From: Eledone cirrhosa
Lineage: Eukaryota
Direction of reading: 5' to 3'
NCBI GenBank assembly: GCA_964016885.1
Contig: OZ024743.1
Location: 304,544,001-304,608,000 of the forward strand
Length of the DNA stretch: 64,000 nucleotides
Shown: positions 25,861 to 54,900 of the stretch, one piece after another
Numbering within the stretch: the stretch's first letter is position 1
Layout of the letters: each line of letters opens with the position of its first letter
Program-made: the position numbers and the translations under genes
Notes under the pieces: model-generated
The model's input: the letters and a program-made list of their open reading frames with translations, nothing else
Database searches by the model: none
What the model was told of the DNA's origin: nothing

Positions 25861-26232
25861 AAACGGAAAAAATGAAACGAAATTTCATTTCTCACTCTTA
25901 GTATGGCTGTTACTTAAATATAAGTATGTATATGTACATACATATATGTATACAGACGTACAGTAGTATGTATATATATATACATACAGCATATATATAT
26001 ATATGTACGTATGGATTTACCGAACATTTATTATAATGCTCGGTGTGTTTGTAAACAAACATCCCGAATTAAGCCATACAGTGTTTAGCAACCGTCGTTG
26101 CTCTTTTGTTCAACACTGACAAAGGAACGATGTACTAGTTTCAATCTTATTAGCTATCGTCAGCACCGTATACCTTCCTGCCAGATGATAGAACGTCTGA
26201 AAGTATATACTTTCCTTATGTATATTAACGTT
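25861..26232 (-). mobile_element. HHR-carrying repeat family R (retrozyme-/pLTR-like), copy
   Basis: Shares sequence with 30595-31010, 48405-49270 and 53948-54900; HHR at 26127-26169. Confidence 0.75.
26127..26169 (-). ncRNA. Minimal hammerhead ribozyme (family R)
   Basis: acggtg-CTGACGA-tagctaataagatt-GAAA-ctag-TA-catcgt on the minus strand. Confidence 0.75.
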
Positions 26233-26259
26233 CAATTGAAATGTGATAATTGTTCCTTT

Positions 26260-27060
26260 AGACAGATCACTCCAGAACAACTCGAACCCTTGATGAGATT
26301 CTAATAGAACCAATATACAATCCATAGTTGTAGCTACAATAAACATTTACTAAAGTATAACCAATGTAATGGAAAGGAAAACCTTAATATTAATACTATC
26401 AACACATGTACATTTGAACATTACCGGAACAATCATAACATTACATCCACCATAAACTTCATAAAAACTGCTTTTCATACCCAAGCATCTCTGTCTGCTT
26501 AATATGCTTTTATACCTGTATTGCATTATGTGATACCTTTGCCATCCTGTGATATATATGCTTAGTAACATTGCTTGTTTCTTACCTGGTTATTCTGTAC
26601 ATACCTAACACATCTGCACTCTTTCTATCCGCTTTCTATATGTACTGCTAATGTCCTCGTTTTGCAAGTAACTTTCTTCTTTATTTCCTCTATAATTGTT
26701 GTATTATTCTTTTAATATGTTTGTCGCATCCACTGATACTGACCACATCATCTTCACTCTTTAAATATGACACTGCTGTTAATAACAACACTAACATCTA
26801 CATATCTTTACGATTGTTCTGTGGAATAGGAGGTTAATTATATGTCTAAATTTGCTGGTGCTCCGATGAATCTAATCTAAAGTTTGGAAGAAACGATTGT
26901 CAGCAATAACATGTTTTGAACATAGTTTTGATTATTCTGTAATGTATATTCCGGCTCTGTAAATCATCTGATGTATTTACATTGAGCTATTTTCCTTAAT
27001 CGTAATAAGGTAGTAATGAATTACTGACCTTTCCTGTTTATAATTATATATAGTCTATAT
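26260..27060 (+). mobile_element. Interspersed repeat with HHR-like motif (probable PLE 3' UTR); diverged inverted copy at ~42750-43600
   Basis: Recognisable homology to 42750-43600 (reverse) and partially to 21930-22090. Confidence 0.6.
26859..26905 (+). ncRNA. Hammerhead-like motif (U4C core)
   Basis: tgct-CCGATGA-atctaa...ttggaa-GAAA-cgattg-TC-agca; the homologue at 42920-42964 (-) has the perfect palindrome cgatcg. Confidence 0.55.
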
Positions 27061-29160
27061 ATAAGATTAAATAATATTATTATTATTATATATATATATA
27101 TACATATATATACATATATATATATACATACATATATATACATATATATATATATATATATATATATATATATATATATAGAGAGAGAGAGAGAGCGAGA
27201 GAGAGAGAGAGAGAGAGACAGAGAGAGAGACAAATATATAAACAATATATGTTATACATTCATTGGTAAATAAAATATAGTTTACAGAATACCCATTAGA
27301 ATGTATAAGAATAATAGAGAATAATATAGAAAAATAAAAATATTTAAAAAAAACATTAAAATGAGGGAACCCTGGTTTAGTCAACATCTTATAAGACAAG
27401 AGTAGTGTCATTCACTCTCGTTTGCTTTATGGAGTAAAGAAAACGTGAAGGCTTTTATTCTACCGACAGGACTCGGGTACGTCCTGCACCAAAATGACGA
27501 AAGTGCACTTAATGGATTTTCTTACAAGTGAACATTTCTAATTAAAATTTTAAGAAACGAAAAATTATTATTCGACTGGAAGATTAAGAGGAACAAATCC
27601 AACGTATAAACTCTGTTTTTTTTTTCTTTTGTTTTGTTTTTTCGGATGTAACGTTGTAATACGATTCACTAATGGAAATTGAACATCACCCTCTCACAGT
27701 TGACCCCCACCACATTGTCCTTCTCTCGACACATCGGCTAGATTGATCATTGGTAAATTAAATATAATAAAATAAATATTGCGTTCAGCTAAACCAATGA
27801 ATCTTATTGTTGAACATATCATTATTTCATACGTGCTGTTTTTATGCTGGCACAGTGGCAATGTAGAGCTAATTTTAAATCGTTAATTCTAATTTTAAGC
27901 TAATTTTAAGTCGTTAATTCTAATACCTGATATTGGGGATGAAATTCAATATTGACCTTCGTGGAATTTGAATTCAAGGCACAGAGAGCTGGAACGAATA
28001 CCTTAAGTCGTTCCAGCCAATATTCTAATTCACATCCTTTAATCATATTTTACCACCTTCCAAAATGAATACCACACTGGATATTGTATTTCCCGATTTA
28101 CCTTGTTCGATCAAGACGGTGCTGGTGCTAAGCAACAACAATATATCTAGTGTAGTCTTTGATTATCTTGCAATTTCCAATTAAACAAGGAAGCATTTAG
28201 TGAAAGTATCTCCTACTATAAACTCTAATCGACCAAAGCTTTTTTAGAGGATTGGATAAAAAGATTCAGTGCAGAAGGTCATCGAATTGCGTGCATTCTT
28301 CGGTTATAGACATAATCTGTCATTCGAATTAACATCACTTCTTCATAATCTGTGGGAAAATTTAAAAGTGTCTCTGTTGAAAGATTTCGGACAAGATCAC
28401 CGGGGAGGAATAAACTTGATATCTGAAATGTCTTCCTCCCATTGAGTTTTATTTCTTTTCTACCTGATAATCCACATTATGAACACTTCACCTCACTAAC
28501 TAAATCATAAATATTTTATTAATCCGAGAAGGACAGTAAAGTAGATACCATACAAATAAACAAAATGTATAAAATTGGTCACATTCTTTATCACATTTGA
28601 CAGATGTCACTTAAAACTAAAACAATCATAACTAGGCAATAAATGATACATATCATTCAGACTCTATTACTTTGATCATCCGTTTACCAAGGCCATCTAG
28701 TTTTTGTTTTGCTTCATTAGAATTTTGTCGTTCATTTAAACATTTGCGTATGTAAGCGTGTGTATATTTATGATAATATATGTAGGAATTATATTCTATA
28801 AATATATATATATATATATGTATGTAGATGTGTGTATAAATATATACATATATATATATATATGTGTGTATATATATATATACATATACATATATATATA
28901 CATACACACATATATATATATATACATACATATACATATATATATATATGTATATATATATATATAAAAATACATACACATACACACATATATGTATGTA
29001 TATATATATATATATATATATGTATATATATATATATATATATATATATATATATATATATATATATATATATACATATATATATATATATATATATATA
29101 TACACACACACATATATATATATATATATATATATATATATATATATATATATATATATA

Positions 29161-29468
29161 AATGGAAAAGAATGAAACGAAATATTATTTCTAACTCTTA
29201 GTACGGCTGACACCTAAATATAAGTATGTATACGTACATATATGTGTACAGACGCACAGTAGTATGTATATATATATACATACATGCACAAATATATATA
29301 TGTACGTATGGGTTTACCGATAATTCGGGGTCTTTGTTTACAAACAAACCGAACATTATAATAAATGTTCGGTAAACCCATACGTACATATATATGTGTG
29401 CATGTATGTATATATATATATACTACTGTGCGTCTATACACATATATGTATGTACGTTTACATACTTA
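29161..29468. repeat. Fold-back (inverted) arrangement of family R fragments
   Basis: 29161-29320 is followed by an inverted overlapping copy at 29321-29468. Confidence 0.7.
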
Positions 29469-53079: not shown

Positions 53080-53099
53080 ATATATATATATAAGTACAC

Positions 53100-53800
53100 C
53101 AATACTATATAGGTAGCACAATCCGGCCGTTGCACATCCGGATCAAGGAGCACACTAAAACCAGGGCTTCGTCTTTCCGGAAACACATAGCCAAATGCGG
53201 AAACAAAGACGGAAGGCCCATTGTCACAATTCTAGCGACAGAAAGAAACGTCGGCACGTTACATATCAAGCAAGCAATTTGGATCAAACGCCTAGGGCCA
53301 CGATTAAAAAACCGATCCGAGAGAAGCGAAATGAGGTGGTTGGTTTAAGTTAACAAACGATGCAACAACACACGCACACACACACACAAGCGAGGCAGCA
53401 ACACACGCACACACACACACACACACAGTAGCATTCCACCATACGAACATACTACACTGCCAATACAGAGGAACAAGGCAACAACACACGCACACACACA
53501 CAGTAACATTCACCAAACAGGCAGAGAATGGACTGACAGCTAGCGCCACCCCACTCCCACAATTGAAAAACTACTTCGGCCGCTGACCTCTGCCTGACCG
53601 GCACCATTTCACGCGCACGCGCGCTCTACTGAATACCTCAGATATCCAAAACAACGAACAGCGGAGGACGCGTTTCGCGCCTTTCCGACACACAACCTCT
53701 CCCCCCCCCCCCCCCCCCCGGAAAAACACCCAGTTGATGGATGTGAATCCGAAATATATAGGGACAATTAAATCTCTCCCAAGGTAACTCTTTCACGTGT
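53100..53800 (+). mobile_element. PLE fragment (GIY-YIG C-terminus + 3' UTR with degenerate HHR at ~53728-53763)
   Basis: YYIGSTIRPLHIRIKEH..FRKHIAKC..AIWIKRLGPRLKNRSE; ccCAGTTGAtggatgtgaatccGAAAtataTAggg. Confidence 0.7.
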
Positions 53801-53947
53801 TGTTATTTTTATTTTATCTTTACGCTCTTTGCTTCATTCCTCTACACGTTACAGTCTTATACACACCACGCATCTCAACGTACACCCACTTATATCTCTC
53901 TCACCATCACCGGATCTTGTTACCCGGAGATTTACCCATCTGCATTG

Positions 53948-54900
53948 TTCAGCCGTTAATTTTCATAAGGAAAGTATATACATTCGAACGTTCAACTATC
54001 TGGCAGATGGGTATACGGTGCTGGTGATAGCTAACAAGCTTGAAACTAGTACATCGTTCCTGTGTCAGTGTTGAACAAATAGGTGACGGGGTTGCCTTAA
54101 CACCGTGCGGCATAAATTCAGGCTGTTCAGTTTGTTTACAAACGAACAAAGCGGGCGCTATAATAAGCGTCCGCTAAACTGATGCGTACATATATGTATG
54201 TGTACCTGTATGTATATATATATATATATATATATATATATATATATATATATATATATATATATATATATATGCATGCTACTGTACGTCTGTATACATA
54301 TATGTATGTACGTATACATACATACTTACATTTAAGTAAGTGCCGTACTAAGAGTGAGAAATGAAATTTCGTTTTCATTGTATTACAACTCATCGTTTTC
54401 GGTGCGCCTGACCGATTTAACTCACTCGATATGCAAATTAGGCTGCTCAGCCGTTAATTTTCATAAGAAAAGTATATACTTTCGAACGTTCAACTATCTG
54501 GCAGATGGGTATACGGTGCTGATGATAGCTAACAAGCTTGAAACTAGTACATCGTTCCTGTGTCAGTGTTGAACAAAAAGGTGACGGGGTTGCCTTAACA
54601 CCGTGCGGCATAAATTCAGGCTGTTCAGTTTGTTTACAAACGAACAAAGCGGGCGCTATAATAAGCGTCCGCTAAACTGATGCGTACATATATGTATGTG
54701 TACCTGTATGTATGTATATATGTATATATATATATATATATATATATATATATATATATATATATATATATATATATATATATATATATATATATATATA
54801 TATATATATATATATATATATATATATATATATATATATATATATATGCATGCTACTGTACGTCTGTATACATATATGTATGTACGTATACATACGTACT
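53948..54900 (+). mobile_element. Family R tandem dimer (period 498 bp) with two HHRs
   Basis: HHR 54015-54057 (CTGGTGA, mutated) and 54513-54555 (acggtg-CTGATGA-tagctaacaagctt-GAAA-ctag-TA-catcgt). Confidence 0.82.

Follow-up and report, generated by a model that had tools for sequence, protein, structure and literature searches.

A 64,000-nucleotide stretch of the Eledone cirrhosa genome (contig OZ024743.1, positions 304,544,001 to 304,608,000; hereafter the window) contains copies of a non-coding repeat, here named family R, each unit of which carries one hammerhead ribozyme (HHR). Judged from its DNA, family R is a young, very abundant and newly found retrozyme of the type lacking long terminal repeats (non-LTR), likely a non-autonomous retroelement. 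The retrozyme reading of the original prediction is supported at this level by a head-to-tail monomer without an open reading frame (ORF) and with one canonical type-I HHR. The ends of the copies are direct DNA evidence for integration of the kind seen in Penelope-like elements (PLEs), and membership of family R in the class of PLE-mobilised, non-autonomous HHR elements is held with high confidence. The complete explanation, a PLE-mobilised retrozyme cycling via self-cleaved circular monomers, is favoured with moderate confidence. Statements on published systems refer to the consulted sections of the cited papers.

Six HHR cores were located in the window (26163-26133, 30894-30864 and 48652-48622 on the minus strand; 49086-49116, 54021-54051 and 54519-54549 on the plus strand), and all six copies originally predicted (26127, 30858, 48616, 49080, 54015, 54513) were found in place. 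Under the definition in PMC4209133 the family R motif is a canonical type-I HHR, comprising a 6-bp stem I with a distal extension, CUGAYGA, a U.U pair plus a 4-bp stem II, GAAA, and a short stem III formed by the palindrome ACUAGU alone, with a cut predicted after GUA. The proposed shared motif was present at all six sites, but only the copy at 54519 matched the family consensus in full. Stem II is mismatched at 26163 and 49086, and stem I at 30894 and 48652. Rfam matched 241 nt to Hammerhead_HH9 only weakly (18.6 bits, where the gathering score is 52; E 0.032), so the HHR assignment rests on motif, folding and covariation. Over the whole window Rfam gave microsatellite-driven miRNA matches, with no hammerhead among the 150 matches listed. 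The palindromic stem III that had been proposed was verified as 6 nt, with a computed duplex energy of -4.8 kcal/mol; its closure within a monomer was computed to cost ~5 kcal/mol. The palindrome agrees with possible action of the HHR as a dimer, and palindromic stem III with dimer cleavage is already established for metazoan HHRs (PMC4209133). Because the first HHR of the window's tandem pair has a core mutation, this pair probably would not release a monomer.

Unit statistics were obtained from 53 cleavage-to-cleavage monomers, which were 419-538 nt long with a GC content of 0.31-0.39. The predicted lack of an ORF and the internal (TA)n were both borne out: the longest ATG frame had a median of 72 aa and a maximum of 137 aa, there was no conserved ORF, and the unit holds its own (UA)n hairpin. 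Family R is non-coding, low in GC and without LTRs (primer-binding site and polypurine tract were not searched for). No copy examined has an ORF for reverse transcriptase (RT) and GIY-YIG between pseudo-long terminal repeats (pLTRs), the layout of autonomous endonuclease-containing (EN+) PLEs. A tRNA-derived short interspersed element (SINE) was rejected, as no match to RNA polymerase III A or B box patterns occurred in the 53 monomers and ARAGORN found no tRNA over family R. The octamer ATGCAAAT, considered as a small nuclear RNA (snRNA)-type promoter by an analogy reportedly offered by newt satellite 2, occurred in 44 of the 53 monomers yet overlaps a paired helix, which gives no support either way.

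The exact 31-nt core had 24,001 matches in the 2,996-Mb assembly, against 0 for a reversed-pattern control, and an overlapping 32-nt pattern that spans the cleavage site had 23,365. Twelve 50-kb blocks at round coordinates (600 kb in total) contained 10 family R clusters, occupying 1.1% of the sequence. All 13 cores in these clusters were within one mismatch of the pattern, which indicates that the family is young. The genome share is roughly 0.5-1%, the 600-kb sample having more exact cores than the genome average. Two subfamilies, R1 and R2, differ by about 20% overall. Family R was also present in three of four sequencing runs of unspecified kind, the contigs of which cannot show ends, strand or level.

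After arms close to locus edges were dropped, 116 distinct arm 3' ends were counted: 54 at one site (A), 49 at another (B) and 13 elsewhere. Site A lies ~207-237 nt past the cleavage site and site B 61-63 nt further, and (TA)3 or more adjoined 95 of the 103 A or B ends. The 5' ends were scattered. Where R had entered a PLE ORF (locus L114), a 9-bp target duplication was present. Fixed 3' ends, scattered 5' ends and the 9-bp duplication are together marks of target-primed reverse transcription. The termination of copies at fixed sites 210-300 nt downstream of the cleavage site, overlooked in the original prediction, identifies PLE-type integration as read from sequence: two fixed 3' ends bound a tail, the tail is on one inverted arm, the 5' ends vary, and insertion is into a microsatellite. 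A PLE studied in vitro begins reverse transcription at two internal sites bounding the tail, and both DNA strands are cut and extended (PMC11167929). By this comparison, sites A and B may be taken as the reverse-transcription starts of R, and the bounds of the tail at 54329..54392 in the window are likely two such internal starts.

Head-to-head pairs numbered 24 in total. In 18 of these both ends could be classified, and all 18 were A+B, an outcome expected about ~4 times in a million under independent choice of ends; the other six had one unclassified end. A looser rule applied to 67 unpaired arms added 17 A+B cases with an HHR-less inverted partner and none that were A/A or B/B, while in seven A or B arms the inverted piece was unclassifiable. 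In all 24 pairs the two arms belonged to one subfamily. The A+B rule also held for two coding PLE families, PLE-Q (5 pairs) and PLEa (3 pairs). Head-to-head copies resemble foldback elements, and recent DNA duplication has occurred inside L117 and L128, as would fit a satellite or foldback repeat that spreads through recombination of DNA and in which the HHR is a relic. This explanation is very improbable in the face of the fixed 3' ends, scattered 5' ends and target duplication, and of the 88 of 115 arms that are dispersed and have a single HHR.

Head-to-tail runs reached seven HHRs and included 44 of the 100 first-listed R cores, compared with 0 of 100 for the HHR of PLE-Q. Two or more consecutive intact HHRs, which define an 'active' retrozyme according to Li et al. 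(bioRxiv 2026.07.22.740005), occurred elsewhere (e.g., L091, L092, L098 and L129) and not in the window, where 54021 is mutated. Arms were longer than approximately one unit in 63 of 102 cases, and arrays of up to seven near-identical units had private variants in common with their own inverted arm. The cleavage site was spanned by 171 of 219 matches; within 10 nt of it four matches started and none ended. Template jumping between cleaved linear monomers was rejected, since, with these four starts among 219 matches, 5' ends did not accumulate at the cut. A dimeric circle, suggested by ABAB arrays in L117 and L128, was also set aside, as variants common to some A units fit later DNA duplication of an old array. 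The 5' ends of several R arms (L102, L103, L111, L113, L003 and L098) adjoin stretches a few hundred nt long that are unrelated or belong to other repeats and begin at (TA)n, and these joins are possibly template switches to other RNAs.

In the proposed mechanism, multimeric read-through transcripts of R would self-cleave, probably as HHR dimers, to 420-540-nt monomers, which would then be ligated into circles. A Penelope-like RT/GIY-YIG protein would nick both strands of (TA)n and prime two cDNAs on a single RNA, one from site A and one from site B. Reverse transcription would run around the template, covering 0.2 to 7 units before dropping off variably, giving tandem and head-to-head copies. 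Monomers of coral, mussel and axolotl retrozymes have been shown to circularise (PMC7229834), and passage from circle to tandem was proposed in PMC4209133. A circular monomer is somewhat favoured as the main template.

In the predicted fold of the circular monomer the HHR sits at one end of a branched rod, and 67-71% of nucleotides are paired (3 monomers). Of 34 rows representing 96 copies, 33 diverse ones were used to assess covariation with a structure of 66 pairs, in which 97% of 2153 cells were paired and nine pairs had double changes. The covariation value was 0.098 compared with 0.065 after shuffling (0 of 500 shuffles as high), a measure that counts sequences and not events in rows that are related, with the structure drawn from those same sequences. 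Stems I-III remained paired across the subfamilies, and stem I pair 1.3 covaried, switching among U-G, G-U and A-U; the invariance of the core is partly built in by the choice of rows on the core pattern. The covariation supports selection on the family R fold without being proof of catalysis. Shuffle z-scores were -3.6 and -2.6 for sub-regions of the 54-kb copy and -0.5 to -2.7 for segments around single HHRs, the best of the latter belonging to the core-mutated copy.

Besides these limits on the alignment, several points weigh against the circular reading. In vitro, the tested PLE inserted HHR-dead RNA normally and used mainly uncleaved RNA as substrate, with read ends absent from the cleavage site (PMC11167929). 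Because the HHR is dispensable there, an uncleaved linear multimer accounts for the same DNA footprint. Five of the six window HHRs carry a lesion, and in just 11 of 24 pairs was an arm's nearest, or almost nearest, sequence that of its partner. The loci were not a random sample (30 best matches to R1, first-listed places on one contig, and the 12 blocks), and some are local duplicates (L001/L002, L114, L121). Self-cleavage, monomer RNA and circles of family R are likewise proposed from sequence. An uncleaved linear read-through transcript of arrays as template, with the HHR a weakly active inherited passenger and no need for a circle, is a serious though less probable explanation. It is consistent with the eight of nine Xenopus retrozyme dimers that did not cleave (bioRxiv 2026.07.22.740005), with the U.U at the base of stem II that R shares with axolotl HHR_Amex2, where it accompanies weak cleavage (PMC7229834), and with the later DNA duplication that enlarged some arrays (L117, L128). 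It fits less well with stems I-III kept paired, and pair 1.3 switching, across subfamilies ~20% divergent, and with the near-identical arrays sharing private variants with their inverted arms; linear parents alone would also be expected to shorten arrays over generations. DNA alone cannot separate a linear multimer from a circular template.

Attachment of R to a coding PLE was searched for, as the original prediction had proposed, with cases inspected by eye in L006, L045, L091, L098, L032, L114 and the window. Where pieces of PLE ORFs lay within 2 kb of R, (TA)n stood between the two, R interrupted the piece, or the join was a one-off, and in the sampled loci R was not always the terminal repeat of a coding PLE. 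The apparent chimera in L114 proved to be R inserted into a PLE ORF with the 9-bp duplication. One such join is in the window, with PLE family Y, which encodes RT and GIY-YIG, has a ~40-nt tail into (TA)n, and was also seen in L133-L160; no canonical CUGANGA hammerhead was seen in its 3' region. In the Eledone genome this junction occurs at two places, the window and a local duplicate, and an R terminus was at none of 28 other Y loci. The junction reads as a one-off chimera, formed by a template switch or a truncating insertion, and family Y was rejected as parent on this ground. PLEa was rejected because its HHR is different and its tail is 78 nt. An inverted local duplicate of window 53-55.7 kb lies at ~304.697-304.700 Mb (L001, L132), ~100 kb away.

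R could still be the pLTR of an unfound coding PLE, with its copies as 5'-truncated ends, given that its ends, tail, inversions and (TA)n target are all PLE-like, that one window copy follows a PLE ORF and 3' untranslated region (UTR) in the same sense, and that the analysis covered only three or four of the PLE families in the genome. This is improbable, however, as the 63 of 102 longer arms enter the tail of the previous unit upstream of the HHR and not an ORF, PLE-Q and PLEa have different HHRs of their own, a true pLTR (that of PLE-Q) shows 0 of 100 short-period tandems, and the Y junction is confined to the window and its duplicate. No sequence homology of R to the termini of PLEa, Y or PLE-Q, the three families compared, was found beyond separate neighbouring copies.

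PLE-Q is young and often intact. Its copies are 96-98% identical with open frames of up to 1,407 aa, and its HHR had 16,475 exact matches in the Eledone genome compared with 1,104 for that of PLEa. The protein contains RT, a cysteine-rich linker and a GIY-YIG domain, and can be read as Neptune-type from PMC8557442. Pfam detected GIY-YIG only below threshold, in two of six window proteins. PLE-Q is also at window 37887-38400 and in L228 and L244. Tail lengths were 61-63 nt in R, 60 nt in PLE-Q, 78 nt in PLEa and ~40 nt in Y, and one head-to-head chimera of PLE-Q (B) and R (A) was found in L006. Because its tail length matches that of R and this chimera exists, PLE-Q is the best candidate mobiliser of family R, with the chances about evenly balanced. 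Weighing against PLE-Q, the PLE-Q/R chimera is a single case, the window's own chimera is with family Y, R has no recognisable PLE-Q homology, and the comparison covered the termini of PLEa, Y and PLE-Q only. The protein of the PLE studied in vitro is predicted to be dimeric (PMC11167929). A circular retrozyme RNA might be copied by both subunits of a PLE-Q dimer, from A on one strand and B on the opposite strand, with the A-B spacing as a ruler set by the protein; this extension is speculative and rather unlikely.

Within the window, the predicted head-to-tail and inverted copies were present, as were read-through junctions near 31011, 48960 and 54390 and HHR-less pieces at the fragments placed at 29161 and 31335. 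They do not form a single array and instead represent six separate insertions, three of which are head-to-head (Table 1). The copies at 48616 and 49080 form a head-to-head pair, and 54021 and 54519 are the only head-to-tail pair of two HHRs.

Table 1. Family R insertions and adjoining PLE features in the window (64,000-nt coordinates).
Feature	Position	Strand	Details
Family R (subfamily R2) single arm	25860..26230	-	5'-truncated; core 26163-26133 with stem II mismatch; site B end into (TA)n
HHR-less head-to-head insertion	29159..29468		minus arm 29320-29159 ends B; plus arm 29321-29468 ends A; both into (TA)n
Head-to-head insertion	30594..31200		minus arm 31113-30594, ~1.25 units, core 30894-30864, ends B
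Second arm of insertion 30594..31200	31107-31197	+	short; ends A
R1 fragment without HHR	31333..31506	-	ends B
Head-to-head insertion	48405..49277		minus arm core 48652-48622, ends A (48411)
Plus arm of insertion 48405..49277	48692-49277	+	~1.4 units; core 49086-49116; interrupted by another repeat at ~49279
PLE-Q head-to-head 3' ends	51973..53077		own HHR at 52244 (-) and 52874 (+); B at 51973, A at 53077; 60 nt apart
Family Y coding PLE 3' part (GIY-YIG C-terminus and 3' UTR)	53081..53948	+	joined to 5' end of R dimer with 3-nt microhomology
R1 head-to-tail dimer	53946..54902	+	ends A (54902) into (TA)n; monomer 54052-54549 (498 nt)
HHR	54015..54057	+	CUGGUGA, an A6-to-G change in the catalytic core; predicted inactive
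Tail between sites A (after 54328) and B (~54392)	54329..54392	+	runs on into next unit
HHR	54513..54555	+	sole window copy fully matching consensus; predicted cut after 54549, between GUA and C

PLEa occupied window 50550-51974 on the minus strand and was also found in L068 and L076; it is young, with 719-aa open frames and an HHR with a long stem II. An apparent 516-aa ORF in the window is a PLE-Q end fused to PLEa residues 245-719. Relatives of a neighbouring PLE include a named Octopus bimaculoides protein at 56% identity, which together with the microsatellite load suggests an octopod. A second, small family of hammerheads, in which stem II has 3 bp and stem III is palindromic, was seen at 29715-29787 (minus strand) and 55628-55701 (plus strand). 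Near-perfect palindromic insertions at 45619-45966, 47679-48159 and 56060-56537, the first two with a CUGAUGA...GAAA hammerhead-like motif per arm, are probably head-to-head ends from additional PLE families; the sampled 50-kb blocks contained similar copies. An unclassified 0.8-kb repeat without an open frame occurred at 26274-27037 and 42794-43583 (71% identical) and in L023, its first window copy lying immediately upstream of the 26-kb R arm. Broken RT copies resembling long interspersed elements, L1/Tx1-like and Dong/R4-like by their motifs, and two PLE-like fragments with weak GIY-YIG matches were distributed over 3417-8333 (minus strand), 9987-13750, 14211-16615, 17702-21430 and 33685-36926. 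A single tRNA-Ser(GGA)-like sequence at 55873-55946 (minus strand) may be a SINE head.

Family R resembles metazoan non-LTR retrozymes (PMC7229834; bioRxiv 2026.07.22.740005) in its ORF-less, low-GC tandem monomers of a few hundred nt with one type-I HHR, in its thousands of dispersed monomers, dimers and multimers, and in a branched, self-paired fold that leaves the HHR free. Those retrozymes are 170-400 nt long, whereas the R unit is slightly longer and contains its own (UA)n hairpin. Family R is known from DNA, while the retrozymes of coral, mussel and axolotl have RNA data (PMC7229834). R resembles EN+ PLEs, both Neptune-type (PMC8557442) and PAc Poseidon (PMC11167929), in forming partial tandems, in targeting (TA)n, in having an arm that is inverted and 5'-truncated, in a tail confined to one end, and in an HHR lying upstream of two internal RT starts, which are putative in R. 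It differs in having no RT/EN ORF, in running straight from site B into the next HHR over ~150-160 nt, and in a tail of 61-63 nt compared with the 30-40 nt reported for EN+ PLEs. Non-autonomous Chlamys PLEs such as MRC1 (PMC8557442) are, like R, non-coding and multicopy head-to-tail, and they are mobilised in trans, as R probably is. Their 3' ends resemble those of their autonomous partner, whereas none of the PLE termini examined matches R; canonical HHRs, present in R, are missing from most Chlamys elements.

In the literature searched, which did not cover subscription papers, neither a cephalopod retrozyme nor end mapping of any animal retrozyme was found, and 'ribozyme' or 'hammerhead' did not appear in the consulted main text of a 2026 Octopus vulgaris repeat paper (PMC13282606). 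The retrozyme class, the dimer mechanism and the 'tail at one end' are already published, and the surprise is therefore moderate. Earlier retrozyme papers (PMC7229834; bioRxiv 2026.07.22.740005) base their case for mobilisation by PLEs on HHRs in common, on co-occurrence and on homology of pLTRs, whereas for family R the argument comes from the ends.

The enzyme mobilising animal retrozymes is still a hypothesis in the discussion of PMC7229834, and the mechanism is described as awaiting elucidation in bioRxiv 2026.07.22.740005. For the PLE assay already available in vitro, family R supplies a small RNA, two putative start sites that have been mapped, and a candidate protein that is young and intact. 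If the subunit and ruler model were true, it would account for the tails and inverted arms of PLEs generally, and tail length could match retrozymes to their mobiliser once sequence homology is gone.

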